From Bdellovibrionales bacterium (lineage in GTDB: Bacteria > Bdellovibrionota > Bdellovibrionia > Bdellovibrionales > JAUICD01): 64,000 bases of DNA. The notes below the pieces were generated by a model. The model saw only the letters and a program-made list of their open reading frames with translations. It did not search any database and was not told the DNA's origin. Both the position numbers and the translations under genes were made by a program. Numbering within the stretch: the stretch's first letter is position 1; each line of letters opens with the position of its first letter. Positions 30,359 to 55,395 of this stretch are shown piece after piece. The stretch spans positions 576,001 through 640,000 of the forward strand of contig OZ253553.1 in NCBI GenBank assembly GCA_965262715.1, written 5' to 3'.

Positions 30359-33300
30359 TTATTTTCCGATTTCTTGATAGACAAAACTAGGTCGCCTCAA
30401 TAAATTGAATGTATCCACAGTGATAGGCTCTGTGCTTTGTCTAGCTTCTTTCATTGCATTTGCAACTAATGGGGCTTGAGCATTTTTATTCCAAAAGGGA
30501 TGCAAAATGATAATGTTTTTTCCATTTATACAAAACCCAGGCAACTTACCATATTCTTTTGGTTTGCAATCAAAATTCAAACAAAATTTATTTCGCAGAG
30601 ATATTGCTCCATTTATCCCATCTATCCACCCTTCAAGTTCAGGAGCAGAGAAATCATTATCGATACCACACTTGTAACTTGAACTAAAAAAGGTTTTAAG
30701 AAGAGATACAGCTAATCGCCAATCAAGAAGGCCATGATAATGAATATTGCGATAAGCTTTCAAACATTTATGACAAGATGAGTCACACCCTTGAATATGC
30801 TCTTCTTCATAAAGACTCTGCATAAATCGGCTATTTATAGGGTTTTTTATTTCATTTAGAATTGTTGGGAGGGTTTTTTCAATTTGAGTAGAAAATCCAG
30901 CACCATTAGGCAGATGGTCATTCAATCTGATTTCTCCACTATCTTTTCCAGTTTGTAATCGTTTTCTGACGATATTTCCGACATCTAGTTCCTCTGGATC
31001 AATATCTAAATGTTCTGCAACAAGTGTTCTTAGTAGAAAGGCAGCAGAATAGTAAGCCCCTTTCATAGCAGAATGTTTTTTCAAAAGATTCAAATCCAAA
31101 TCATTAGGAATAGAAGCATGTATAATGCTAAAAACCTCTGTTTGTTTTCTAGAAGCCAAAGCAACAGTCATGTTTTCATTAGATTCAGATATGAATTTAA
31201 AGCCATTTTTATTTTGCTGATATTCTGAGGCAATCCATTGTTGATTTAATTCCCTACTATTCTTTTTCACAGTACCTATAGATCCAGAAAAAAACTGTTT
31301 GTTGTTATCATTGATTCTAAACACATTCCCTTCATTTGTGACGCTTATTTTGCAATTAAGGTTATCTAATAATTCATGATTGAAATCTTTTTCAATAAAA
31401 CTTCCTGCTCCCTGAAACACAGGCAGATCAATATCTTCAGCATCTTTTCCATTGGAAAAATCAGTTCGAAAGCCCTTTGGAATCACATATTTAAATTCAA
31501 CAATATATTTTTCTTTTATATTTATCTCACATTTTGGACATTTTACATAATTAGGTTTATTGTCAGATGACTCAATACACCGGCATGATTCACACCGAAA
31601 GAGCCACTTTTCCTCATAGATTGGATCATCTGTTTTTATATGATTATATTGTCCATATAAAGGTGATGTGAAACCAATAGCTGTATGAATTTTTTTATCT
31701 TTTGTTTTTTGAGAACCAGGAGCGAAATCAGAAATAGCTATCTCTAAATCCCTATCAATTGTTTGAAAGTCTTTTCCACGTTGACCATGATACAGATATC
31801 GAACTCTTGAAGGCATTCCAAACATAGGTAGAAGATTTTTTTCTGCCAAAGCCTCTGCTAAACCCATTTTAGGATTTTGACCTTTAATACTCTTGTCAAT
31901 CAATGCATAAAGCTCATTTTGAATAAATTCTTTGATGTGATTTTTATCTATATTTTCAACACCTACTGTCAGAGTTTCTATTATAGAATTAAAATTTCTT
32001 CCTATTTCTTCCAGATATCTTTTAATTTGACCTTGGCAGTCTTTTTCATTATTTTTCCATGTTTCAACCGTACCAAACTCCCCATGAGTGTCTGTATTTG
32101 TAGGTCCATCTGATCCAGAAAATCCTGCTTTTTCAAAAGCCTGTCTGAGAACTTCCTTTATAATAAGACGTCGAGCAATTTCCTGTCTGGGCATAGACAA
32201 AAAAGGTACTGGAGGAGCATCATTTAAAATCTGTTCTGGGTAATGGAAGTAAAAATTATCAAAGCTATTGCCTCGACATAATGTTAAAGCAAAGGAAAAA
32301 GCTTGATTTCTTCTACCGGCTCGGCCCACTCTCTGTTGGTAATTAAATCTTTGTGGAGGCATATTAGCTAAAAATACTGATTGTAACGGACCAATATCTA
32401 CACCTACTTCCATTGTAGTTGTAACGCTCAATATATCTATTTCTTCTACAATTTTGTTTTTTGAGTCATCGAGGATTAAGCCACGAAAATGTCTCTGTCT
32501 CTCTGGCTGTTTGTTTTTATCTGTTTGAGCAGATAATTCTTCACAGTGAAGACGAATAGGTTCTCTATTATCTTTAACAGACTTTGAATAGTAATTTTTT
32601 TTGTACAAATCTTTACAAGTTACATTTGTTTCTTCTTCCAGCTTCGCAAAGCAGTTGCTACATATTCTACCACTATTATGCAAATGAGGTCGTCTACACT
32701 TTGGACACTCCCAAGCAGGGTCATTTGGGTTAGCGATTTTTATAAAAAGGTTTTTTGACTCTAAAATCGCTTTTCTGTGACCTTGTTCTTCACAAACTAA
32801 TTTCCAAATGATTTGCTCTAACTGATTTTCTTTAATTTGGTGAATTTCTGCACATTTTTTAATATATTCTTTTATCTTTTTTTTCAAATTACTTATAAAG
32901 TCAACACTTTGAACTGGATAGAGGCTGTTTTCATATCTCCCGGCATCTCCAAGCATTCTTATAAAACTATTACATATTTCTTTTAAGGAGTTTGAGGACA
33001 AAGATGTATTTTTATCTAAAATTTCATTTTTTTGTTTCTCTATAATGTGATTTTCTATGTTGAGACAAGGAAATCCTAAACCAGAAGACTCAAAACCAAA
33101 GTAAAGCCTTTGAAATAGAGCTCTAAAAATTCTTTGTTTAATCTCATTTCTAAACTCTCCTCTTTTTTCTTTTAAAGTTTGAGAAACTCCATCATTCCAA
33201 ACTTGATATTTTGATGAGTTAAATAAATCATACCATGGATGTTCTTGATTATTTTCTGAATCCCAAGATTTATCTAAAGTATTACCAGCAGGATTGACAC

Positions 33301-35998
33301 CCATATTTTTTAGCCTAAGTAGTAATGTTTCTTCTGTGTTATCTTCAAATAAGATATTGATTGGAAGAATTTGTGTTTCTTTCATCCGTTTTATTCTATC
33401 TATTTCTTTCTGATATTTGTCTTTATTTTCTTTTAGTTCGTCAATTAAATCTGATTGTTTTTCACAAAATTGGATGTAATCAATATATTTTTTTAACTTT
33501 TGAAAATGCCCCGGATGTTGACTTTCATATCTTTTAGCCATATCACTTTTTGCCTCTTGATATTGTTCTAAATCTTCTAGAAATTCTGGCTCTCCTTTAA
33601 CAATCAGCTTAAGTTCAGTGTAAAGAATTTCTCTAATCAAATCTTGGTAATGACTTCTTTCAATACCATTAGAAACCCTTGCCGCTTCTTCACGGCTATC
33701 TGAAAAAACAATCATTTTTCTATTTTTTTGATTTAAATGGTAAAACATTTCTTTAGATAAAATCTGTATCATTTTTGAAAATCCTGTTCGAAATCCTTTA
33801 ACGGGAGTTTTTAATTTGCTCTTTTGATAGTTTGCTCCACAGCTTGGACAAATAGAGGATAAAGCCATTATTTTTGATAAATCATCCCTAGAATCAGAAG
33901 TGTTAAATAAATAACCATTGATACAATCATCTTCATGATTATGCTCAAGTTTAATTTTCCCTGATTTTTTATGCAGATTTGCTTTACTCCATTTGTATTT
34001 GGATCGAGATTGTTTCCCTGATGTGGTAGTTAAAGGTTGTGACCACGGTGGTTTATTCTCTATTTCTGAATCAATAGATTGTCCTTTAGGACAAGGCCAA
34101 AACAAGGCATAATCCTTATAACTTCTTTTTTCTACAAAAGGCGTGATCTGCTCATCTGGTATCTTTTCAATGTCTGAAGTGGTTTGCAATAATTCAAAGC
34201 CATTATGATCCTCTCTATTAAACCTTATGCCGCCAAAGAATAATGTGCCACATTGTTCACAGTAAAGGGATTCAAAGACTTTGTGTTGAGCCTTGCAGAG
34301 CAAAGGCGGGTCTTGCAACCATAATTTACCTAAAGAGTTGTTATCATTGTTTTGATCTCTATATTCTTTAGAACATTCAGGATGGGTACAAGCCCATAAA
34401 CCTTCTATATTTTTAAAAAACAAATGAAATCTAAAGGAAAGTTTGATCTGTTTATAATAATTGTGGATAAAGCAAAATAATCCTTCTATAGCTTTTACTG
34501 CATCTTGATCTTCACTAAATATTTTTTTTGAAAGTTCATCTAAAGCAAGAGCTTTTTTACTTTCTTTTTTGAAAATATGACGTATTAAAACATTTATAGA
34601 ATCAAAAATATCTTGGTCTTTATCCTTCTTTAAAGATTTTTTAAGCTCGTTAAGAATTTCTGTTGGTTTATCATTGTTTTTTAGAAAAACTTGAGATGAC
34701 AAGTTTTTAAGATGATGATCAGAAGTCTTAGGATCATCAATTTCACCACTGACGATTTGATCTTTTTTCCAATTTATTCCAAAGAAGTCTTTTAAAAATC
34801 TCAAGCTCTCTGACTTTTCAGGTTCTAGTGAAGCACTAGATGCCAATATTCTTAATTGTGGACTATCAGGTGATAAACCAAGCCTATAGAGAAGTAAACG
34901 AATCAAATAAGCCACTTCCGCACCAGCTGTTCCACGATAAAGGTGCAATTCATCCACAGTCAAATGAAAAATATGACTTGGATCTTTTTCTAACCACTGA
35001 CGAGTTTTTTTAAAAATATCTTTATCAACGTCTCTCATCATCATAATGCTAAGCATGCTGTAGTTGGTGATCAAAATATCGGGTGGGTGGTCCTGCATGT
35101 CCCAACGGTTTGTCATCTCTGCTCTGTTGATTGTTGAGAAAAAATATTGCAATTCTTTTTTTTCTTTTTGATCAGAATGTTTCTCTAACTGTTGTTGTGT
35201 TTTATCTGTTTCTTCTAAGAATTGAGTGAGTTTTTTCAATTTACTTGTTTTCTTTTCATGTCCTGGGACAGGGGTCATACCTGTATAACGACCAAAATAA
35301 AACCGATTGGAATTACGATTTTCAACAAACCACTTCTCTGCACTATCAGAAGTTAAAGCCTTTCTTAAACGAGAAAGTTGATCTTCTACAAGAGCATTCA
35401 TAGGATAAAGAATTAAAGCTCGAACAGCTGGATCTCTTTTTTCATGGTCCCTTTGAGAAACTCTATAACTTTTTTTTAAGCCTTTGTTATTTTTCTTTTG
35501 ACAGGATTTTTTCCAATCCTCATTTTTCCACCAGTCATTTAAATGAATATCAGGCTTGTCTGGCTTTTCCCAAGTGAAAGACTCTTTCACAAGACTTGCA
35601 AATAAAGGTAATAAAAAGGACTCGGTCTTACCTGAACCTGTTCCAGATGTGATCACTGTATTTTGACCTTTAAGACTTTTTGTCAACATTTCATATTGAT
35701 GTTGATAAAGTTCCATATCTTCTTTTAAAAATCCAGAATGAGCAAAAGCTTGAAAAGCCTTGACCTGATTGGGTGAGAAACCTTCCAAATCCTTTTCTGT
35801 TAAATCAGATATTGTTTTGTTTGATCCTTTGTATTTTTGGATCAATTCAATGTAGGGTTTTTGATAAAAAAGGCCTTCTTTGTCTAGAATTTCTGCTCTT
35901 TCTTTTTCAAATGAAGGAAATTGTGTAGCAAATCGAGTCTGCACATAAAGCTTAAAATTATCCCTGATTTCCTCAAAGGCTTTTATTGGATTACGCAT
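30359..35998 (-). CDS. Large DEAD/DEAH-box helicase with C-terminal DUF1998, DruE-like
   Basis: SGTGSGKTES, YPMNALVEDQ, DELH, TTTMEVGVDIG, YQQRVGRAGRR, several CxxC pairs, GAGF and CDSSCHKCL (DUF1998-type). Confidence 0.85.
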   Translation of the reverse strand: MRNPIKAFEEIRDNFKLYVQTRFATQFPSFEKERAEILDKEGLFYQKPYIELIQKYKGSNKTISDLTEKDLEGFSPNQVKAFQAFAHSGFLKEDMELYQHQYEMLTKSLKGQNTVITSGTGSGKTESFLLPLFASLVKESFTWEKPDKPDIHLNDWWKNEDWKKSCQKKNNKGLKKSYRVSQRDHEKRDPAVRALILYPMNALVEDQLSRLRKALTSDSAEKWFVENRNSNRFYFGRYTGMTPVPGHEKKTSKLKKLTQFLEETDKTQQQLEKHSDQKEKKELQYFFSTINRAEMTNRWDMQDHPPDILITNYSMLSIMMMRDVDKDIFKKTRQWLEKDPSHIFHLTVDELHLYRGTAGAEVAYLIRLLLYRLGLSPDSPQLRILASSASLEPEKSESLRFLKDFFGINWKKDQIVSGEIDDPKTSDHHLKNLSSQVFLKNNDKPTEILNELKKSLKKDKDQDIFDSINVLIRHIFKKESKKALALDELSKKIFSEDQDAVKAIEGLFCFIHNYYKQIKLSFRFHLFFKNIEGLWACTHPECSKEYRDQNNDNNSLGKLWLQDPPLLCKAQHKVFESLYCEQCGTLFFGGIRFNREDHNGFELLQTTSDIEKIPDEQITPFVEKRSYKDYALFWPCPKGQSIDSEIENKPPWSQPLTTTSGKQSRSKYKWSKANLHKKSGKIKLEHNHEDDCINGYLFNTSDSRDDLSKIMALSSICPSCGANYQKSKLKTPVKGFRTGFSKMIQILSKEMFYHLNQKNRKMIVFSDSREEAARVSNGIERSHYQDLIREILYTELKLIVKGEPEFLEDLEQYQEAKSDMAKRYESQHPGHFQKLKKYIDYIQFCEKQSDLIDELKENKDKYQKEIDRIKRMKETQILPINILFEDNTEETLLLRLKNMGVNPAGNTLDKSWDSENNQEHPWYDLFNSSKYQVWNDGVSQTLKEKRGEFRNEIKQRIFRALFQRLYFGFESSGLGFPCLNIENHIIEKQKNEILDKNTSLSSNSLKEICNSFIRMLGDAGRYENSLYPVQSVDFISNLKKKIKEYIKKCAEIHQIKENQLEQIIWKLVCEEQGHRKAILESKNLFIKIANPNDPAWECPKCRRPHLHNSGRICSNCFAKLEEETNVTCKDLYKKNYYSKSVKDNREPIRLHCEELSAQTDKNKQPERQRHFRGLILDDSKNKIVEEIDILSVTTTMEVGVDIGPLQSVFLANMPPQRFNYQQRVGRAGRRNQAFSFALTLCRGNSFDNFYFHYPEQILNDAPPVPFLSMPRQEIARRLIIKEVLRQAFEKAGFSGSDGPTNTDTHGEFGTVETWKNNEKDCQGQIKRYLEEIGRNFNSIIETLTVGVENIDKNHIKEFIQNELYALIDKSIKGQNPKMGLAEALAEKNLLPMFGMPSRVRYLYHGQRGKDFQTIDRDLEIAISDFAPGSQKTKDKKIHTAIGFTSPLYGQYNHIKTDDPIYEEKWLFRCESCRCIESSDNKPNYVKCPKCEINIKEKYIVEFKYVIPKGFRTDFSNGKDAEDIDLPVFQGAGSFIEKDFNHELLDNLNCKISVTNEGNVFRINDNNKQFFSGSIGTVKKNSRELNQQWIASEYQQNKNGFKFISESNENMTVALASRKQTEVFSIIHASIPNDLDLNLLKKHSAMKGAYYSAAFLLRTLVAEHLDIDPEELDVGNIVRKRLQTGKDSGEIRLNDHLPNGAGFSTQIEKTLPTILNEIKNPINSRFMQSLYEEEHIQGCDSSCHKCLKAYRNIHYHGLLDWRLAVSLLKTFFSSSYKCGIDNDFSAPELEGWIDGINGAISLRNKFCLNFDCKPKEYGKLPGFCINGKNIIILHPFWNKNAQAPLVANAMKEARQSTEPITVDTFNLLRRPSFVYQEIGK

Positions 35999-36971
35999 TA
36001 TTTTTCCTGTTTTGAAACCTTAGTTTCTGTTCCAGTTTACAAGCGATAAGTTCCGCTATTTTATAAGGAACACTTTTGAAGATAAATTTTTTATTTTCTC
36101 TAATAGGAGGAATTCCAGAAAGCAACGTCAATCCTCTTTCAAAAATAGCTGGAAACCGAAGTTTCGAGCACAATTCAAATGTTTGTTTATCATATTCTAA
36201 TACAGGACAATTTGATTGCTTTGCCATAATAAAACGTCCCCAATCTAAATTGACTTTTGCTTTATCTTCGTTTGAAGACTTAAAAAGATAATATGTGTGA
36301 GATTTTTCATAATGTGATATTTTAACAAGAGATAAGTCATTTCTAAATTGCTCTTTTGATTCAAGGTTTTGAAACTTTAAGGTGCTTGTATCGAAAAACT
36401 GTTTAATATCTGATGTATTGCCACTATGCCATTCTAAAGATAAAGACTGCTCGTATTGATTTATATCTCCAGTAAATTCTAATATATCCCAAGCTATAGG
36501 ATGTTCACAAGCTTTTATATAACCTGATAACTTATTTCCTTGAAACGCAACTTTTTGTAGATGATCTTCCAAATCTTCTCTATTTTCAGGTTTTATCATC
36601 ACAGTAGCTGGAAGACATTTATGACTTGTTATTTCAGTTTGAAAATGAGATTTGATCGTTTTCAACAATTCAGGAATGCATGCTCCTGTCAGAAGAAAAA
36701 TAGGCGTAAGATAAGGCAGGGCCACCAGCATAGGTGGAGTTACTTTGATATATGTTTGGCTGTTATTTTCTCCTATGTCTATGTATCCTAAAGCACTTAA
36801 TTTTCTGGAGAGATTAAGTATAAAATATTTGTCTTTCTCTAAAGAGTCTCTTCCATAAAGAATCTCTACATACTTTTTGAAATCATGCCATCTCAAAGTC
36901 TTTTTTTTAGAGAGTAAATACAGCAAATAATGACCCGGTTGACCTTTAGACTTTAACATGTTCTGCCTCAT
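35991..36971 (-). CDS. Hypothetical protein, Druantia accessory-like
   Basis: Overlaps both neighbours (8 and 26 bp); LSALGYID, ERGLTLLSG; position directly before the helicase. Confidence 0.6.
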   Translation of the reverse strand: MRQNMLKSKGQPGHYLLYLLSKKKTLRWHDFKKYVEILYGRDSLEKDKYFILNLSRKLSALGYIDIGENNSQTYIKVTPPMLVALPYLTPIFLLTGACIPELLKTIKSHFQTEITSHKCLPATVMIKPENREDLEDHLQKVAFQGNKLSGYIKACEHPIAWDILEFTGDINQYEQSLSLEWHSGNTSDIKQFFDTSTLKFQNLESKEQFRNDLSLVKISHYEKSHTYYLFKSSNEDKAKVNLDWGRFIMAKQSNCPVLEYDKQTFELCSKLRFPAIFERGLTLLSGIPPIRENKKFIFKSVPYKIAELIACKLEQKLRFQNRKNNA

Positions 36972-39024
36972 TTAAAAGTTTTTTCCATTCTTGTTTTTGT
37001 GGTTTTGAATCAAGGTTAAGTTGAATACGTTTTCTACGATGCCAGATGATTTTTTTCCATTGATCGATTTGTTTTCTAGAAAATTTGTTATTTGTATCAG
37101 TAAGTGATGATTTGAGTACATTTCCAAGATAATGTGCTATAGCCTTTTTATGTGTCTTAAAATGAATCATCCAATTAGCAGTCCATTTTAAATCTGTCCA
37201 TGATACAGAAATTTGCCCTGGTGTATCTCCTATCCAATAAATTTTTCCATAAGTGGGTAATTCAATATTTGGAAACCTTGTATAATCCTCTTTATGTTGT
37301 AAATAAGGTCCATAAGTTCCTTGAAGAAGTTGATTATTTTCGTTTTCCTCTTTTAAATTTCCAAAACGATCCATTGCATACCCATTCGAATATTCATTAA
37401 ATTTCTCTAATTGAGTTTTTACAAGCATAAGATGTGATTTTGTTGGTAGTCTTGAATCGCTGCCTTTTAATATGATCTCAATCCGTTCATTATAAGGAAT
37501 ATCTTTAGGAAGTAAAAAAGAATAAGAGGATTTACCTGAAGGAATCAGCTTCTTTTCTTCATTATTGACTTTATAAAAAGTCTCTGGGTCTTGATCTCTA
37601 CATCCTATAACTTTAACTTGAGGAAGGGCAAAATCAAAAAATTGATTGCCTTTAGAAAGACGAATACCTCCTTCAAAATGAATTTTAGAATGTTCATCTA
37701 TGGCAAGAGCAGGTATGGAATCTTTAATCAGACTATCATTTTTTACGCCTTTTATTTTGAAAAGATGCCAATTTGTTGGCAGGCCTGTAAAGTCATTTAA
37801 TTTTTGAAATTTGTCACATTCTTTCTGACCCCATCTTTGGACTTTCTCAACAAGATCAGAATGAACAGCAAGATAAAATAATTCATCTGGCGTATATCTC
37901 TGACCTGATACCCATCCGTCTACTTCTAATTCACTACCCTTTGTGAATATTTTGTATTTTTCTCCTTTATAGTGAAAGTGATATTTATTATCATCGGTTA
38001 TGCTAGCAGAAAAATCTTTTGCCCAATCTTTAATGGAAAACTCTTGGATGAAACCAGATATAGTAGATGATGGGGATGGCACTTGCCATTCCTTATTTTC
38101 ATTTTTTAAAATAAAATCTTCATCAGGCAATCCATTTGCTTTTTTACACCTAAAAGAAACCTTAACAGTTTTAGCTGTTTGATCTATATCATTTAAACAG
38201 ATGAGAATTTGCCCTCTTTTTTGATGGCGGCCAGCTGATGTTTCTTCTATCTGATCTTCATCATAGTTTTTAAGTTCTTCTAAAAATCTATTACATAATT
38301 GAGAACGAAAATCAAGTCTGCCTTTTTCAATTCTTTTTTGAGTCCTATTTGAAAGCTTTTGTTTATATCTCTTTAAGGCTTGCAAAATCTCTGCTTCTGT
38401 GGGGATGGAATCTGAATCCCATCCCATTTTCCAAAATATTTCAGGAAGATGCTGTTGATCTTCTTTTGTAAGGACTACTTGATAATAAAGGATACCGACA
38501 TAAAGCCGTCCACCGTATATATCAAGATGAAACTCCCCAAACCCACCTTGTTTATCTTCTAAAGTCCATTTTTCTAAATCCTCCCATAAATCTGGTATGT
38601 TTTTAAAGTCTTGTGTTGAAAGGTTCTCTCCTATAAGCTCATTAAGTCTTGGATAATAAGCTATTTCAGAAAAATCTTCATTATTTCTCCCATGGCTGAC
38701 AGCTAATACAAATAAAGCTAAATAGGCGGTATAGGGTGGATATTTAAATTGACTTTTATCACTTTCCCACTTTTTAAATATCTTATGAGCTTTTTTACAG
38801 ACATTGTTTTGTTTTAAGTCATTTTTGATCTCATCAGGGCCTAATTTAACAACCTTTATAAATTCTTCAAAAGTGGTGTTGTTTTCTTTAGCAATTTTTC
38901 CTATTAAATCTTTTTCGGCAGAAAACCACATGCGTTGTCCGGACTTGTTCTCATTGAAAAAATAACTTGCAATTGCATCATTCCACTCCAGATACTTCAA
39001 GACAAAATCCTTTCTGATTTTCAA
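36946..39024 (-). CDS. Hypothetical protein, Druantia accessory-like
   Basis: YLEWNDAIASYFF, PPYTAYLALFVLA, YYPRL, LWEDLEKW; first gene of the helicase operon; TTG start. Confidence 0.6.
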   Translation of the reverse strand: MKIRKDFVLKYLEWNDAIASYFFNENKSGQRMWFSAEKDLIGKIAKENNTTFEEFIKVVKLGPDEIKNDLKQNNVCKKAHKIFKKWESDKSQFKYPPYTAYLALFVLAVSHGRNNEDFSEIAYYPRLNELIGENLSTQDFKNIPDLWEDLEKWTLEDKQGGFGEFHLDIYGGRLYVGILYYQVVLTKEDQQHLPEIFWKMGWDSDSIPTEAEILQALKRYKQKLSNRTQKRIEKGRLDFRSQLCNRFLEELKNYDEDQIEETSAGRHQKRGQILICLNDIDQTAKTVKVSFRCKKANGLPDEDFILKNENKEWQVPSPSSTISGFIQEFSIKDWAKDFSASITDDNKYHFHYKGEKYKIFTKGSELEVDGWVSGQRYTPDELFYLAVHSDLVEKVQRWGQKECDKFQKLNDFTGLPTNWHLFKIKGVKNDSLIKDSIPALAIDEHSKIHFEGGIRLSKGNQFFDFALPQVKVIGCRDQDPETFYKVNNEEKKLIPSGKSSYSFLLPKDIPYNERIEIILKGSDSRLPTKSHLMLVKTQLEKFNEYSNGYAMDRFGNLKEENENNQLLQGTYGPYLQHKEDYTRFPNIELPTYGKIYWIGDTPGQISVSWTDLKWTANWMIHFKTHKKAIAHYLGNVLKSSLTDTNNKFSRKQIDQWKKIIWHRRKRIQLNLDSKPQKQEWKKLLNEAEHVKV

Positions 39025-39429: not shown

Positions 39430-39816
39430 TCATTGACTTATGTATGCATCAGCTTCAATTTCAATCAGCATTTCAGGATTAATTAATTGCTTGACCTCAA
39501 CCATAGTTGTTGTAGGAGGATGGTTTTCAAAAAATTCTCTATGTGCTTTCCCAAATAATTCCCATTTTGAAATATCAGTTACAAACATTCTTGTCCGCAT
39601 AATTTTAGAAATAGGTACATCTAATTTAGCGAGAGTGTCTTCGATAATCTGTAAACATTTTTTCGCTTGTAAATAAGCATCATTAGGAGCAAAAACATGA
39701 CCATTGCTGTCAATAGAAGTTGTTCCTGTCACATATATATGATCACCAGCCTTCAACGCTCTACAATAACCTACTTTTTTTTTCCATGGCGTGTTTGTAA
39801 ATGTTCTTTGAAACAT
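39430..39816 (-). CDS. RidA/YjgF family protein
   Basis: VGYCRA, VTGTT, RTRMFVTDI, PTTTMVEV, IEIEADA. Confidence 0.9.
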   Translation of the reverse strand: MFQRTFTNTPWKKKVGYCRALKAGDHIYVTGTTSIDSNGHVFAPNDAYLQAKKCLQIIEDTLAKLDVPISKIMRTRMFVTDISKWELFGKAHREFFENHPPTTTMVEVKQLINPEMLIEIEADAYISQ

Positions 39817-39964
39817 TATCTTTTCCTTTCTATTTTAAAAATTTATCTTTTTTATAGAGGTCAAAGATATGGGTTAAAATGTAAAATAAAAATATACTCA
39901 AGGCAAATTGAAAATATAGACTTAAGGTTTTTTGTGTGAAAATGTGACATAGAAGACACATAAT

Positions 39965-40065
39965 CGGAATAGATGGAAGGTAGAAAGAACTTTTGCTTGG
40001 CTTCAAAATTTTAGAAGGTTAGTGACTCCATATGAAGTAAAAGACGAGATTTTAAACAACCTTAG
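39965..40065 (+). pseudogene. IS5-family transposase C-terminal remnant with IS end
   Basis: Translates [24 protein letters not shown]; followed by TTTTAAACAACCTTAG resembling an IS5-type right end. Confidence 0.75.
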
Positions 40066-40089
40066 TTATAATAATTCTCCCAGAAATAT

Positions 40090-40541
40090 CTATGGAAGTA
40101 AATTTATATGTGTTTTATTTTTATATATATGTCCCCTAGGCTTATTGATTATTCGATGATCTGTGAAATCTTCATGTAAATCTTTATCCCCTTTATCACC
40201 ACCAAATAACAGTCTGGCCCTTCTCTCTACTAATGCTATAGCAAGAATATGTGTGTCATTGGACCTTATTGAAGTCTTGTTGATCTTACGAGTAAGATCA
40301 ATTTTTTCTTTCATCTCTTTTGATTCAACTCGATAAGTAGCTCTTTGTAACCTTATGATCATTTTTTTCATGTTAGGAGATTTTTTATTTCATCTATGCT
40401 TTTCTTATCATTACCATATACTAATGTTAATTTTTGTTTTTTAATACACTTATGAATAGGTACTGAATCTTCATGATTCATATCTACAAATTTGTGAAAA
40501 ACACTAGCATCAACAATTATTCCCGGCTTTGACAATCCCAT
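40090..40541 (-). pseudogene. PIN-domain protein, frameshifted or split into 57-aa + 93-aa halves
   Basis: ATG 40541 (AGGA RBS) gives MGLSKPGIIVDASVF..., stopping at TGA 40370-40368, which overlaps the ATG of the 93-aa ORF containing SNDTHILAIA...GDKDL; one extra A in the A6 run (40381-40386) fuses them into 150 aa. Confidence 0.7.
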
Positions 40542-40583
40542 AATTCTATCCTATTTTTCTAAATTAAGATGTTGTAATAAAAC

Positions 40584-41879
40584 TTAATCTTCTAATCCTA
40601 ACAATTCATAATCTTCTTGTAAAAAAAAGTCTGTATAGCTGTCTGGTTGATTTTCAAGATTTCCGTTGGAGTCAATAGTGATTGGATGAATTTTAGTTGC
40701 TCCATTTTTTAATTCAAAATATAATATTAAAAAGGCTTCTGGCTTAAGATTTTTTTTCTTAATCTCAATACTTGACCTCTTAATGATATAATCACTATGA
40801 GTCTCACAGATAAATCTGTATTTTTTATCATGCTCATTGATCATATTGATCATATTGATCATATTGATCATAAGAGTTGCAAATTCAGCTTCTACCTTCG
40901 GATGAAGGTGAACTTCAGGCTGTTGTATCAAAAATGTATTGTATTTTTCTTGGTCTGAAATAAGCACGTTCCCCAAAATTGGCAAAAATTGATTGACTCC
41001 ATAACCAACATTTGTGATATCTGATTCTAATTCATCAACTTTAACTTTTATTGAAAATGGAGAGAACTTATCTTCTTTATTTAATATATGTATATCTAAA
41101 TCTTGAAAAAGGCTTGAATCTTTACCAAATTTTTTAAGCTTTTCTTCTATTTCATTCCAAGCTTTCTTTCTTTTCATCTGTGCCATCTCACATAAAACAT
41201 AAGATGAGTCTGTAGTTTTAATTCGACTAGGCTCATATTGTTTTTTCGGTTCCAGATGTATTGGGTTAAAAAGATTACAATTCATTTTTTTCCACTGTTC
41301 TTGAAGTTTTAATAAGTTGGTTATTTTTGAATGTAAAATTTTATTTTTTTCAAGAAAGTCTTTTGGATTATTAGATAAAAAAGAAATAATATGAAAAAAG
41401 TTAATATCAAAATCTAAAGGCATAGTGCCTTTATATTCCTCTTGTTCGTTCACAAGAATTCTTATCATAATATTTTCTTCTATGTTTATCTCTATATTAT
41501 CTTCAGAACAGTTTATCAGAATCCTGTTGCATATTTCCCCCTTTTTTATTGAATATTCTATACTCCATTTATCTCTACCAATTTGTAATGTTGCTCCAAT
41601 CTTTATTGTATTATCATCAGATTGCTGTCTTACAATGCTTTCAGAACCTCCAAGATATTTATATATTGGATCTTTCAATAAGTCTCCTATAGATAAGGGT
41701 TTTATAGGTTTGTCTTTATATAAAAGGTCATGGATGAGTTGATAAGAGGCTAAAAAGGTAGTTTTCCCTGTGTTATTTTCCCCTACAATTATAGTAATAG
41801 GACGGATGAGACTTTTTACTTCTGAAAAACATCTTAAGTTTTTTATTTCTAGACTGTTGATGACCATAATGACCTCCAT
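40584..41879 (-). CDS. ABC-type AAA ATPase (AAA_21/DUF3696-like)
   Basis: Walker A GENNTGKT, VGYGVNQFLP, IQQPEVHLHP, ETHSDY. Confidence 0.88.
   Translation of the reverse strand: MEVIMVINSLEIKNLRCFSEVKSLIRPITIIVGENNTGKTTFLASYQLIHDLLYKDKPIKPLSIGDLLKDPIYKYLGGSESIVRQQSDDNTIKIGATLQIGRDKWSIEYSIKKGEICNRILINCSEDNIEINIEENIMIRILVNEQEEYKGTMPLDFDINFFHIISFLSNNPKDFLEKNKILHSKITNLLKLQEQWKKMNCNLFNPIHLEPKKQYEPSRIKTTDSSYVLCEMAQMKRKKAWNEIEEKLKKFGKDSSLFQDLDIHILNKEDKFSPFSIKVKVDELESDITNVGYGVNQFLPILGNVLISDQEKYNTFLIQQPEVHLHPKVEAEFATLMINMINMINMINEHDKKYRFICETHSDYIIKRSSIEIKKKNLKPEAFLILYFELKNGATKIHPITIDSNGNLENQPDSYTDFFLQEDYELLGLED
40836..40871. repeat. In-frame 9-bp tandem repeat x4
   Basis: (ATTGATCAT)4 encodes MINMINMINMIN. 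Confidence 0.95.
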
Positions 41880-43303
41880 AGGTTTAATAAAAAATCTAAT
41901 TTGTTTTCTTTTTTAAGTTGTTTATCACGTTGTAATACTTTGATAACTTGTTTATCACCCTTTCCCACAATGTTTGAAAAGTAACAATTTTTATTACATA
42001 GAGATTCATCTTTATTTATTGTTCCAGACAAGAAATTATATTCTAGTTTTTTTAATCTTGGCCACCAATTTTCAGACAAGATAAAATGTAACATCATTAA
42101 GACCTCTAGACTGGATAGGTTTTGACTAAAAGGGAAAATATTTGCATTTCCAAAACCTCTCTTTGAATGTAAATACTCAATATATGAAGGATTATCTAAA
42201 GAACCATCAAGTTCCATAGATACGTCTGAAGTTGTATATTGTTTTCTACATAGCATGCACTTATGTCCATAAGTTACGATGTGACAACCCCATCGAGCAT
42301 CAAAAAATTTATCATGCCTTTTACTAACAGCTATTCCTCCATCAATTACAGGTATCAAATAGGCATAAGCTATATGATTTAAAACATCTCTTGCCAAGGG
42401 TTTATCTACACAACTAAAAATGATATCACAGTCTAATACTGATCTAAAGGCAGATTGTGTTTGTATAGGCTGTATAATAGCTTTTACTTTTATCTTCTCA
42501 TTCACAGAATGTTTTAATATTTTTTCTTTGAAAAAATCTGCTTTAAATTTTCCAATATCCTTTCTAGTTGCATAAAGTAGCCGATCTAAATTATGCTCTT
42601 CAATTTTATCATGATCTATTAAAATAATATTTTCGATACCTATTCTAGCCAAATTTTCACTCACAATAGAACCTACACTGCCAAGTCCTACAATACCTAT
42701 TTTCATTCTGCTAATTTTTAACTGTTCCTTTAAACTCCAAGTCTCAATAGTCCTTCGTAAAATATTTTTATTTTGAGATTGATGATATAATTGCTCATTA
42801 AAAGTAACCTTAAATTGATTTCCTACAACTTTTACTTTATCACACCAGAATCGTTTAAACTTTCTGTTTTTCTGTTTTATCCAGAATCTGGCACTCCAAC
42901 TCTCATTTGTGCCTATTGTTAAACCTACCAAAGGCTTTTTTGTACTATTTGCTGGAGGTGCTATTCGATCTCTTTCAGCAATAATATCTGTATGACTCAT
43001 ATCTTGCCATCCTTCAGTAGGATGACTATGCATAAAGGCAAGTCCTGCTTTTTTCTCTATAGCTATTCGTAATGAGCGAGCTAAAAATTCGGGAGAAAAA
43101 CTTGTATTACCATGAAGATTTCTTTCACTTCTCTTAGGAAGAATAATTTCAGAAATAAGAGCTGTTGTTTTACTTTTTCCAATGCAAGGATTCCAAATTG
43201 CAAAACAGAGTTCTTCCTGATGTTTATCCTGTTTAAAATGAGAGAGTAAATGTTCAGAAGCAATTTTGTGGGCACTTTCTGTTAAAATAACTTCATATTT
43301 CAT
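41849..43303 (-). CDS. JAB/MPN-like peptidase fused to ThiF/E1 adenylyltransferase
   Basis: N-terminal QEELCF and HSHP...SHTD (JAMM-like); C-terminal GLGSVGS, DHDKIEEHNLDR, CVD..LAR, IDGG, CMLC. Confidence 0.88.
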   Translation of the reverse strand: MKYEVILTESAHKIASEHLLSHFKQDKHQEELCFAIWNPCIGKSKTTALISEIILPKRSERNLHGNTSFSPEFLARSLRIAIEKKAGLAFMHSHPTEGWQDMSHTDIIAERDRIAPPANSTKKPLVGLTIGTNESWSARFWIKQKNRKFKRFWCDKVKVVGNQFKVTFNEQLYHQSQNKNILRRTIETWSLKEQLKISRMKIGIVGLGSVGSIVSENLARIGIENIILIDHDKIEEHNLDRLLYATRKDIGKFKADFFKEKILKHSVNEKIKVKAIIQPIQTQSAFRSVLDCDIIFSCVDKPLARDVLNHIAYAYLIPVIDGGIAVSKRHDKFFDARWGCHIVTYGHKCMLCRKQYTTSDVSMELDGSLDNPSYIEYLHSKRGFGNANIFPFSQNLSSLEVLMMLHFILSENWWPRLKKLEYNFLSGTINKDESLCNKNCYFSNIVGKGDKQVIKVLQRDKQLKKENKLDFLLNLWRSLWSSTV

Positions 43304-43722
43304 AAGTTTTCCCAGAATCGTCTCAAATGCGATTCAAAAAAAATAAACAGATTTTTTTTTGAACTGTCTAAATCATCCCATATATCTTGAGGTGGCCTAC
43401 TCAACACTATCCAAGTTTCTTCTTCAATTATATATTTCTCATATATTTTACCTATCTTGCCTATGATCTCTTCATTAAACTCTTTTTTTTTGAGGTGTAT
43501 AAAGTGAGGAGGTAATCTAGGATAATCATTTGGAGGAAGTTCTATTCCAATAATAATTTTTTTCCTCTTTAAAGAGCCACAAGGAATAAGGTATTTGAAT
43601 AGGCACAATTGCCCCTCCCTTTTTGATTGAAGAGGTAGATTTAGCATATTTTTTATATCTTGTAGATTACAAGAAGGAATATTTTTTATTTCTATTTGAA
43701 TTTGTTGTTTTAAACTTTCCAT
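43300..43722 (-). CDS. Prokaryotic E2/UBC-like protein
   Basis: IELPPNDYPRLPPHFIH (E2-fold YPxxPP), WIVLSRP; lies between the Ubl and E1 genes. Confidence 0.72.
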   Translation of the reverse strand: MESLKQQIQIEIKNIPSCNLQDIKNMLNLPLQSKREGQLCLFKYLIPCGSLKRKKIIIGIELPPNDYPRLPPHFIHLKKKEFNEEIIGKIGKIYEKYIIEEETWIVLSRPPQDIWDDLDSSKKNLFIFFESHLRRFWENL

Positions 43723-43725
43723 TAA

Positions 43726-44196
43726 TTATGCCACAGGAGTCGGTCCAGAAGAAAGTGCCAAAAATTCATCCCCATTTTCAATTAATACTTTTTCATTTAA
43801 ATCTTTATAGTCCATGTTTGTTTTAGCATTAAATAATTTAAATTTTTCTACAGGTATAAATTCTGCCTTTTCAAGTATCTGTGCCACTGTTTGTTCATTA
43901 TTTGTAGCTAGAATTTCTTGATCTTCTCCATTAACAGTATAGTGAATTCTTAATTCTTGAGACTTGTAGTGAATAGTAAATTCATCTCCACTTTTAACTT
44001 CAATCTTTTGATGTAAGTGTTGTTCTATTCCGTTCCATACTTCTTCTTTTTCCCCACCTTGAATTCTAAAAATAATATAGACATTATAAGGTTCTTGTTT
44101 TTTCCCAATTTCTAAAATGTCTTTGGGTGTTATAAAAGGTTTTGACCATGGTTTTTCATGGTTGTCTATTTTTATATATATATCAGATATAGTCAT
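43726..44196 (-). CDS. Multi-ubiquitin-domain (tandem beta-grasp) protein
   Basis: Two similar units, IYIKIDN..ITPKDILE..IEVKSGDEF and IHYTVNG..TVAQILE..VLIENGDEF; tail SSGPTPVA; AAGGA RBS. Confidence 0.78.
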   Translation of the reverse strand: MTISDIYIKIDNHEKPWSKPFITPKDILEIGKKQEPYNVYIIFRIQGGEKEEVWNGIEQHLHQKIEVKSGDEFTIHYKSQELRIHYTVNGEDQEILATNNEQTVAQILEKAEFIPVEKFKLFNAKTNMDYKDLNEKVLIENGDEFLALSSGPTPVA

Positions 44197-44397
44197 AATG
44201 AAAACATCCTTTTATAGGGTTAATTTGTCAAAGTAATTTGATTCTTAATGGTCAAATAACTAGAAGCGGTCTCAAAAATAAAAGTTTAATAAGTATTGCC
44301 AGAAATTCATAACTTTATCTAACTATAATATATCTCTGTGTTCACCTTCGTCTATAAACGTTTGTACCTATTACCTCTAGCTTCTTATATAAAAGAG

Positions 44398-44500
44398 CTG
44401 TCTTCCTCAAAATGAATCACGCCGCTGGCGTGCTTTCTGGCACTGATCCGATGGTGAAAAACCATCGGATCAGTACCTAGAAAGCCTATTCATTTTGAGT
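44398..44500. repeat. Family A-related palindromic element
   Basis: CTCAAAATGAAT...ATTCATTTTGAG ends; perfect hairpin CTGATCCGATGGT-GAAAA-ACCATCGGATCAG; CTTTCTGG...CCTAGAAAG shared with the 27132 copy. Confidence 0.75.
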
Positions 44501-44831
44501 ACAAGCCATCTCATGAGTTGTTTTGTATAATGCAAAACTGGTATCTTTTTTAAAACTTTTCTCTCTAGGAGCATTTTTGAGATGGCTTTTAGCAAATAAG
44601 TTACCTAATATACCAATAGAGTCACAAATTGTTTTGGGCAACCCATTATAGATAATAGCATATCTGTTATATAATAACAAATCATAATAGATGGTGGCAT
44701 ATTTATCATTTTTGGGTATCAAGCAGAAAAAATGTTTATTTTAGAAACTTAAGCTTCTTCTAACACAAATAAAGAATAATCTACAAACCCTTCCCTATGG
44801 TTTTGCTGAACCTGTCAATAAGAGATGAAGA

Positions 44832-53439: not shown

Positions 53440-55395
53440 CCTGAGTTTGACACTTAATTTGAATTTTCGTGATATTTTTTTCAAGGAATGTTGTATTTAT
53501 AGTCATTAGCGGTTATTGTGTTTGTATTTTGGTCAAAAAGTGTAGTGTACTTATTTATCATACACTACGCGTCATATACCTTATTTTCTTTTATTTTTTA
53601 TATTTTTCTTGTAATGTATTTTTATGTTCATAAGGTCTACAAGAAATCCGAGAGGAGACATATATTATCATCTTGTTGAGAGCTACAGATTAGGTTCTCA
53701 AGTGAAGCAAAGGATTCTAATGTCTTTAGGTAAAGCCGCGGATAAGGAAGTTAACTTGAAGAAGCTTCTAGAAGTATTATCTAAAGAGTTAGAGATAATT
53801 CCTGCTAGTAAGTTATTAAAAGAGATTGATGTTAAAGACACTTTTATATTAGGTCCCTTACTTATAATAGATGCTATTTTCAAACAATTAAATCTCTATG
53901 AATTATTAACAGATTTAAAACAAAAGCACCCTAAAGTACAATTTGATTTTGTTAAGATTATTTTTACATTGGTTATAAGCCGTTTTGTAGAGCCATGTTC
54001 TAAGCTTAAAGTATTTTCACACTGGCAGAAGTTATTTTACCCTGATTTTTTAGAAGAGGAGCTTCATCTTCAAGACATTTATCGTTCTTTAGATATTCTA
54101 AGTAAGCATAAGGAAGATATAGAGAAGACTCTTTATACACAAGGTAAGTCTCAGTTAAGTTTTTTCAATGAGTGTGATGTTATTTTGTATGATTTAACGA
54201 CATTGAGATTTGAGAGTACCCGAGAGGATTTAGATAATCTTCGAAGATTTGGTTATAGCAAAGAGAAGAGGAGTGATTGTACCCAGGTGGTATTTGGACT
54301 TTTAGTAGATAGAGAAGGTATGCCCTTAGGCTTTGATGTTTATCCTGGAAATACCTTTGAAGGTAAAACCATACCTTCAGTTATGGAGAAACTAAAAAAG
54401 AAGTTTAAGATCAGAAGATTTATATTAGTAGGAGATAGAGGTTTATTTTCTAATGAGAATTTACAATCTGTAAAAGCAAAGGGAGATGAATTTATAGTAG
54501 GATTAAAGCTAGGTTTATTAAAGGATCGTCATGCAGAGATATACAATTTAAAGAATTTTAAATTTATAAATGAAAATTTAGCTATATACGAGACGAGTTA
54601 TAATGATAATCGTTGTATAATTACCTGGTCAAGAAAGAGAGCAGAACGAGATAAGAAAGTAAGAGAAGATATTCTATCTAAGTTAGAAGATAAGCTTTCA
54701 AAATCGTCATCAAGCACAAAGGATTTTGTATCTAATAGCAATTATAAGAAGTATATTATTCATCCTAAGAGTAAAGGCAAGCCTACTTTAAATAAGTCAG
54801 CCATAGAACAATCAGAGAGGACAGATGGTTTTTTTGGAATCATTACAAATACAGATAGTTTAAGTTCTGAAGAGATTATAACGAACTATAAGCAATTATG
54901 GAAGGTAGAGAATTCATTTAGAGAATTGAAAGGTACATTAAAGACACGTCCTATGTTCCACTGGACAGATAAGAGGATCTTAGGACATTTAGTTGTGTGT
55001 TTTTTATCTTACTTATGTGAGGCTTATTTTTCAAAGAAGTTACATCAGAGAAACATCACATTAAAAGATAAAGCAATTACAGACAAGAGAATAAAGTCAA
55101 GGCCATTGAGTGTGGCAGAAGCTATGTCAAAGCTGAAAGAAGTACGAGCTATACCTGTGAGGGTAAAGGATAAGACACTTTGGATCAGAACAGATATTAA
55201 CGGTAACAATGCTGATGTATTTAAAGCTATAGGAGCAAAGATCCCATCAAAACAACTTAAAGTAGAATCTACTTAGACCTACAAACAATCTCTTAAATCT
55301 CTACCACAAAATCAAAATGTAGTGGTACAAAATCACACATCCACTGTAACTAACTAAAATAACTTAACTTTATTTTCGCAACTGTCAAACTCAGG
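53440..55395 (+). mobile_element. IS1634-family insertion sequence (1956 bp)
   Basis: Perfect 13-bp TIRs CCTGAGTTTGACA / TGTCAAACTCAGG, flanked by the 145-bp direct repeat. Confidence 0.95.
53624..55276 (+). CDS. IS1634-family DDE transposase
   Basis: YDLTTLRFES, FGYSKEKR, VGDRG, YKQLWKVENSFR, RPMFHW. Confidence 0.95.
   Translation: MFIRSTRNPRGDIYYHLVESYRLGSQVKQRILMSLGKAADKEVNLKKLLEVLSKELEIIPASKLLKEIDVKDTFILGPLLIIDAIFKQLNLYELLTDLKQKHPKVQFDFVKIIFTLVISRFVEPCSKLKVFSHWQKLFYPDFLEEELHLQDIYRSLDILSKHKEDIEKTLYTQGKSQLSFFNECDVILYDLTTLRFESTREDLDNLRRFGYSKEKRSDCTQVVFGLLVDREGMPLGFDVYPGNTFEGKTIPSVMEKLKKKFKIRRFILVGDRGLFSNENLQSVKAKGDEFIVGLKLGLLKDRHAEIYNLKNFKFINENLAIYETSYNDNRCIITWSRKRAERDKKVREDILSKLEDKLSKSSSSTKDFVSNSNYKKYIIHPKSKGKPTLNKSAIEQSERTDGFFGIITNTDSLSSEEIITNYKQLWKVENSFRELKGTLKTRPMFHWTDKRILGHLVVCFLSYLCEAYFSKKLHQRNITLKDKAITDKRIKSRPLSVAEAMSKLKEVRAIPVRVKDKTLWIRTDINGNNADVFKAIGAKIPSKQLKVEST

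Follow-up and report, generated by a model that had tools for sequence, protein, structure and literature searches.

Why should a ubiquitin-like tagging apparatus sit in one operon with an ATPase and a nuclease? The question is raised by five adjacent genes in a stretch of 64,000 nucleotides from a Bdellovibrionales bacterium (assembly GCA_965262715.1, contig OZ253553.1, positions 576,001 to 640,000), which we call the window. Three of the genes encode a ubiquitin-like protein (Ubl), an E2-like protein and a fusion of a JAB peptidase with an E1 domain, here called the core; the other two encode an ATP-binding cassette (ABC) ATPase and a PIN-fold protein, a predicted ribonuclease (RNase). A first-pass annotation took the set for a candidate undescribed defence system in which the core is coupled to the ATPase and nuclease. 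We give about an even chance to a looser arrangement: two autonomous modules, one for Bub-related tagging and one made of the ABC ATPase and PIN proteins, joined in one co-inherited cassette that would provide two layers of anti-phage defence, with the tagging layer alone expected to be intact here. The five genes are indeed co-oriented, and their junctions, when recomputed, take exactly the values first given: a gap of 3 base pairs (bp) between the Ubl and E2 genes, an ATGA overlap between the E2 and JAB-E1 genes, an overlap of 31 bp between the JAB-E1 and ATPase genes, and a gap of 42 bp between the ATPase and PIN genes.

Are the five genes kept together elsewhere? Had such cores never been linked to an ATPase and PIN pair, the adjacency could be put down to chance, but the linkage is conserved in relatives. 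At five of five genome loci recorded as Bdellovibrionales bacterium (L001 to L005), all the genes are present in identical order and the PIN gene is intact; L114 repeats this five-gene order, which brings the total, window included, to seven loci. Within the family of the host, 9 of 101 genomes contain the E1, with 10 matches: the six that belong to the clade of the window all have the five genes, and the four that belong to a sister clade have neither ATPase nor PIN. The surroundings are not conserved: among the fourteen flanks of four kilobases (kb) around the seven cassettes, a single pair shows similarity, short and more than 2 kb off, and the flanks are otherwise unrelated. Median ratios of nonsynonymous to synonymous substitution rates (dN/dS) are 0.24 for Ubl, 0.19 for E2, 0.12 for E1 and 0.22 for the ATPase (21 pairs), and 0.22 for PIN (15 pairs, window excluded); these low values indicate purifying selection on all five genes. 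The distances computed on E1 and on the ATPase are correlated (rho 0.89, p 0.0014, seven loci), and the cassette ATPases form one long-branch clade with a support of 100/100. Since the seven loci are kin, they count as one origin.

A more distant witness is L035, a metagenome record rich in guanine and cytosine (high-GC), which has the same five-gene order and an ATPase only 24% identical. Its PIN protein is recovered with E 4e-19 by a profile built without L035's own cluster, and seven of the eight contigs of its ATPase cluster agree in size with contigs of its Ubl cluster, an indirect sign that the genes are co-located. The best tree separates the ATPases of the cassette and of L035, but a tree that holds both together is not rejected by the approximately unbiased test (p-AU 0.113); two separate origins are thus not established. 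L035 also adjoins a DruE-like helicase.

Each half of the cassette also exists by itself. In a metagenomic survey of the best 80 of 566 stretches encoding the E1, the core comes without the ATPase at 79 loci, and at 61 of the 62 loci with at least 1 kb of downstream sequence, L035 being the sole exception. Conversely, all eight other PIN loci that were fetched are ATPase and PIN pairs, with no core gene within the fetched 12 to 14 kb; two of the eight belong to this genome. This genome and its kin carry up to three such pairs and one or two cores. The link proposed at first is thus conserved among relatives, but the pair is widespread alone and the core is mostly found without it. The PIN family comprises 1179 clusters at 50% identity; none of 82 candidates from viral contigs proved to be a PIN relative, and none was found in plasmids, while distant E1 relatives occur in 11 plasmid records. 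In 60 relatives and 400 genomes of the phylum, the cassette was not found, nor was any strong match to its E1.

In the sister clade, the core has another companion: a gene of about 335 amino acids, convergent to the E1 gene, is present at L110 to L113 and at nine metagenomic loci (L026, L028 to L034 and L044, several of which are near-duplicates). Its assignment as DUF2971-like falls below the cut-off in six of the eight sequences tested, and reaches 0.96 in Atlas. Still other genes follow E1 at L058, L060, L038, L043, L069, L103 and L104, among them a SMODS nucleotidyltransferase, small Cas2/GhoS-like proteins, SIR2-SLOG and Beta protein. The coordinates of the main features are collected in Table 1.

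Table 1. Genes of the cassette, with neighbouring and comparable features. Unprefixed coordinates are positions in the window; aa, amino acids.
Feature	Coordinates	Strand	Description
Ubl gene (BubA-like)	44196-43726	minus	156 aa; two predicted beta-grasp domains; C-terminus ...SSGPTPVA
E2-like gene (BubB-like, serine-type)	43722-43300	minus	140 aa; S108 in W-x3-SRP, near-invariant H76
JAB-E1 fusion gene (BubCD-like)	43303-41849	minus	484 aa; JAB peptidase + E1
ABC ATPase gene (OLD-family, NsnB-like, DUF3696-like tail)	41879-40584	minus	431 aa
PIN-fold predicted RNase gene	40541-40090	minus	frameshifted; pieces 40541-40368 (57 aa) and 40371-40090 (93 aa)
Druantia neighbours	30359-39024		DruF 692 aa, DruL 326 aa, DruE 1879 aa; PADLOC Druantia type II/IV profiles
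Stand-alone ATPase + PIN pairs, this genome (L108, L109)	G000:C1:1431579-1433461 and 225863-227695		
DUF2971-like gene, sister-clade core	L110:7967-8971; L111:5303-6340; L112:8232-9164; L113:5444-6454; L028:2644-3672		convergent to E1 gene

Is the cassette complete in this genome? Compared with four intact relatives, the PIN gene is one base short in a run of A around 40381-40386, and its two pieces overlap by ATGA. A 17-kb contig of run X1 carries the same frameshift, with 0 differences and 0 gaps across 39500-44284, which argues against a slip of the assembly; X1 may be the source sample, and so is not counted as an independent strain. In P0470, a near-identical homologue from a different contig, the frame continues past this point. 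Unless both pieces are made and reassembled, the RNase layer would be disabled here.

What kind of core is this? The Ubl, E2, JAB and E1 set seen in the first-pass annotation stands, but the likeness to Bil and CBASS drawn there does not: judged by its sequences, the core is a sister branch of Type I Bub without a conserved catalytic Cys, rather than Bil or CBASS. A search of the PDB returns Citrobacter BubCD as the solved structure closest to JAB-E1, with E 2.1e-22 over both domains, and Pfam returns ThiF with E 4e-35. The JAB site, E30/H92/H94/D106, aligns with E28, H91, H93 and D104 of BubCD, and is kept in 190 to 195 of 195 non-redundant relatives. In the same 195 relatives, Y374 of the E1 crossover loop is invariant, residues 353 to 404 hold no conserved Cys, and four other Cys (C349, C352, C436 and C440) are kept in 194 to 195 sequences; by likeness to ThiF and MoeB, these four likely bind zinc. 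With a deeper profile, the match extends to residue 402 of BubCD (E 1e-28), which has no CxxC. The motif SYI around Y374 resembles GYI of BubCD, and Y374, as the sole invariant nucleophile in the loop, is a candidate counterpart of the catalytic Y370 of BubCD.

In Pfam, the E2-like protein matches RWD with E 0.014. Its single sequence has no match in the PDB; when a profile built from 33 relatives is used, Citrobacter BubB comes first among PDB entries, in a weak match (E 0.069) that places S108 opposite the serine of the SRH motif. Conservation was surveyed at the 69 loci with two open reading frames (ORFs) upstream of E1, plus the window, with 12 loci that have a single or fused ORF set aside; the labels Ubl and E2 were assigned by gene position, an iterated Ubl profile having drawn in E2 domains through Ubl-E2 fusions. 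S108 is present in 70 of 70 sequences and H76 in 68 of 70, and there is no conserved Cys. The motif reads SRP, with no His two residues past the Ser; the conserved H76 is found instead. For the Ubl, the Pfam match to Multi_ubiq (E 0.001) is below the cut-off, but a profile of 16 relatives matches solved multi-ubiquitin proteins, the best being 9cd2 (E 5.8e-10), with BilA 8u38 at E 8.6e-7.

Which residue would be conjugated? At the 69 loci, the Ubl mostly ends in x-[T/V/M]-x-V-[A/S], and that of the window in PTPVA. The Gly six residues from the end is variable, giving way to E, T, A, K, S or another residue, and where the Ubl has an extra tail or is fused to E2, the addition starts past the V[A/S]. 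Both observations indicate that the conjugated residue is probably Ala or Ser. A gene for DUF6527 (bubE) is absent from the operon. The sole match in the genome lies about 550 kb away; three of four other genomes tested have none, and in the fourth it is distant from the cassette. With the DUF6527 protein of the genome as query, the fetched loci gave no match. This bubE gene (G000:C1:1165495-1167199) follows a gene of 403 amino acids. The surroundings look defence-like, and the pair may represent a Type II Bub operon or what is left of one.

The ATPase matches AAA_15 (9e-22), AAA_21 (3e-14) and, below the cut-off, DUF3696 (0.002) in Pfam, and its best PADLOC profile is NsnB (1.2e-36), followed by PDC-M55A (5.6e-31) and AriA (3.6e-27). 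Walker A is intact in all 111 aligned relatives, and the acidic pair of Walker B is QQ in 110 of them, which, in view of the known behaviour of ABC ATPase mutants, predicts a protein that binds ATP and hydrolyses little of it. In the window, a 9-bp tandem expansion at 40839-40872 adds six residues (MINMINMINMIN) that are absent from relatives.

PIN orthologues are intact in relatives, with lengths of 153 to 169 amino acids. For the one in L004, a model based on an alignment of 145 rows reaches a predicted local distance difference test (pLDDT) of 93, and was used in place of a single-sequence model whose pLDDT is 39. The top structural matches of this model are all PIN domains, the best being VapC 5x3t (Z 8.9, root-mean-square deviation 3.3, 121 aligned residues). 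Foldseek returned nothing at E<=0.001 for the model, its best hit being VapC at 1.7e-3, and the PIN profile had no genuine match among PDB sequences. Pfam recognises PIN in 75 of the 145 family members, and no PADLOC profile matches the protein. The catalytic acids D11, D99 and D128 are present in 145 of 145 sequences, E51 in 143 and D122 in 144, so that, going by its conserved residues, the protein looks active in the family. Together with the core, these results bear out the folds predicted at first: Multi_ubiq-like, E2-like, JAB with ThiF, AAA_15/AAA_21 and PIN.

Does the cassette belong to a known system? Type I Bub (Citrobacter BubAB/BubCD/BubE, formerly 6E.1/DUF6527) is the closest relative of the core: both have a JAB-E1 fusion with an intact E/H/H/D site, a crossover loop with an invariant Tyr and no Cys, an E2 with an invariant Ser and no Cys, a Ubl with several beta-grasp domains, and relatives found under IrrE/HTH (helix-turn-helix) and HATPase/STAS regulators. 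They differ in that the cassette has no bubE, whereas Bub operons were collected by means of DUF6527 and all have bubE, some of Type I having separate Ubl and E2, according to the accessible part of 10.1101/2024.11.21.623953. The cassette Ubl ends in V[A/S] and that of Bub in a conserved C-terminal Gly; the E2 has SRP with the upstream His76, where that of Bub has SRH and an Asp; the E1 has four invariant Cys, a predicted zinc site, and BubCD has no CxxC; finally, ATPase and PIN genes follow downstream in the cassette.

For these last two genes the closest system is Menshen, in which, as described in the part of PMC12065111 open to us, NsnB uses DUF3696 to bind an inactive PIN, with a ParB-type sensor upstream. 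Like NsnB and NsnC, the cassette pairs an ABC ATPase that has an altered Walker B, a GxG signature and a DUF3696-like tail with a PIN-fold protein. It differs in lacking the ParB/DUF262 sensor NsnA, whose position is held by JAB-E1 at all linked loci; in having a single PIN protein of 154 amino acids that keeps its acids D/E/D/D, where NsnC is an inactive PIN with a variable C-terminal effector; and in having QQ in Walker B, where NsnB has EN. The stand-alone pair of an ATPase and an apparently active PIN, with more than 1000 clusters, is in itself a Menshen-like two-gene candidate.

Bil types I and II, as far as the available portions of two Bub preprints describe them, share with the cassette separate Ubl and E2 genes, JAB and E1 activities and a Ubl of two beta-grasp domains, but have separate JAB and E1 genes and Cys chemistry, in contrast to a fused JAB-E1 with no catalytic Cys. 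Type II CBASS, which has a CD-NTase and an E2-E1 fusion (Cap2), differs as well: the PADLOC E1-E2 matches span the ThiF part only, and the scanned ORFs of the window include no nucleotidyltransferase that could be a CBASS CD-NTase. PARIS (AriAB), Septu (PtuAB) and Gabija (GajAB) also pair an ABC ATPase with a nuclease, and the AriA and GajA profiles of PADLOC match; the nucleases of these systems are TOPRIM or HNH, whereas that of the cassette is PIN, and none of the three has a ubiquitin-like core. For GajA, the assignment to the TOPRIM or HNH class follows the accessible part of PMC12065111. On the features compared, the cassette resembles Bub joined to a sensor-less Menshen, and falls outside the definition of each, as it does for Bil, CBASS, PARIS, Septu and Gabija. 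As first surmised, no published description of the five-gene set was found; an earlier one is possible, as the subscription literature was only partly covered. The words 'ATPase' and 'Bdellovibrio' are absent from the two supplements of the Bub preprint.

Is the context one of defence? IrrE-like peptidase genes occur at 21 of the 80 core loci, and HATPase and STAS pairs at 4 of 80. They resemble the CapH/CapP and CapK/CapS regulators that stand beside immune operons and Bub, as stated in the portion of PMC13373217 at hand, and this places the core in a defence context. The Druantia genes close to the cassette of the window, the DruE-like helicase at L035 and the PADLOC matches of the ATPase point the same way. 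The five-gene set is likely an anti-phage operon.

If the two modules are autonomous, how might each one work? Following Bub chemistry, the E1 domain would adenylate the C-terminus of the Ubl, likely at a terminal Ala and not a Gly, and the Ubl would then be passed as an oxyester, via Tyr374, to Ser108 of the E2. The E2 would join it to a lysine of a target, most likely a phage protein, as in Bil. As bubE is absent and the Ubl has no tail that needs removing, the role left to the JAB domain would be that of a deconjugase. On the model of Menshen, PARIS and Septu, the ATPase with its QQ Walker B would bind ATP, barely hydrolyse it, and keep PIN inactive by means of its C-terminal tail; upon infection it would free PIN, and RNA cleavage by PIN would then bring the cell to arrest. 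The two layers would have in common a transcript and a history, and would need no contact. Scans for promoters and terminators remained at chance level (36 versus 32.2 +/- 4.5).

Several facts weigh against this reading of two defence layers. No Bub operon could be shown to protect from phage, according to the part of 10.1101/2024.11.21.623953 that was available. The match of E2 to BubB is weak, and the profile alignment pairs Y374 with a BubCD tyrosine that precedes the catalytic Y370 by 8 residues. The seven linked loci count as a single origin, the PIN gene is broken in this genome, and fragments of cassette genes lie on contigs of close relatives, through decay or read errors. Finally, G512 has a cassette-type ATPase (L119:8619-9902) with neither a core nor an adjacent PIN ORF of at least 90 amino acids.

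The halves could also act as one pathway, either with the core in place of the NsnA sensor, so that conjugation of Ubl to the ATPase, to PIN or to a phage protein triggers the RNase, or with the ATPase and PIN guarding the core from phage inhibitors. Overlapping genes and an order fixed across seven contexts agree with such coupling, as do the equal arrangement of L035 and the very long branch of the cassette ATPase (1.5 changes per column), which specialisation would be expected to produce; in the sister clade, the DUF2971 gene occupies the same slot, as if the core required an effector. However, each half is common by itself, the DUF2971 gene lies on the other strand, and the catalytic set of the cassette PIN equals that of stand-alone PINs, so that we regard coupling as possible but clearly the less probable. 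Its most specific form is a single immune pathway in which a Cys-free, Ala-terminated conjugation unlocks a PIN RNase held by the ATPase, the Bub-like core replacing the DNA sensor of Menshen, and in which Bub-type cores are hubs with a swappable effector slot (ATPase and PIN, or DUF2971). This version is unlikely in our estimation; if true, it would account for the lack of phage protection by Bub operons alone.

Another possibility is that the ATPase and PIN form a toxin-antitoxin-like addiction module that retains a mobile tagging cassette, or that the operon serves a general stress response. The cassette stands at many unrelated sites, beside transposases and toxin-antitoxin-like genes, and the nearest PIN folds are VapC toxins. 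An addiction module is usually disarmed by losing its toxin first, and the loss of PIN in this genome counts for such a module. Bub itself may be a stress response, as suggested in the accessible part of PMC13373217. The available part of PMC12065111, however, places ATPases of this family in tested anti-phage systems, and neither an integrase nor terminal repeats could be recognised within the cassette, which makes an addiction module or stress response rather improbable. Lowest in probability is a frozen accident, by which the modules came together a single time in a defence island and have since been passed on as a block, without any function in common. With several ATPase and PIN pairs and cores per genome, chance adjacency is feasible, and the seven loci are one lineage, with which L035 may share a single origin; yet the five genes are kept together while every flank changes, their overlaps are retained, and their order recurs at the ATPase identity seen in L035.

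The outcome matters because Bub pathways are understood in their chemistry but not in what they do for the cell or what they target. A branch without bubE, with an apparent non-Gly conjugation and a predicted RNase, is open to experiment: it offers a toxic read-out, defined catalytic mutants for each half and, in the operon itself, the genes of two candidate targets. Should the halves prove independent, the cassette would be a modest case of defence-module fusion.

The neighbourhood calls for some further remarks. The cassette has a guanylate-kinase-like gene on one side and a gene of the RidA family on the other. That a Druantia-like operon adjoins it, as first noted, is correct, but no linkage follows: Druantia is missing from L001 to L005 and set off by the RidA-family gene, and is therefore a neighbour, ruled out as a component of the system. 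A repeat of about 337 bp (44263-44601) lies upstream of the Ubl gene, some 65 bp from its start; the genome has seven near-full copies, this one included, and a contig of run X5 from a related strain joins across the site, where the repeat is missing. The repeat may perturb the promoter of the operon. The orphan ATPase of G512 adjoins an apparent ribosomal RNA region. Elsewhere in the window, an ORF of 550 amino acids at 53624-55276 resembles what we take to be an IS1634-type transposase.

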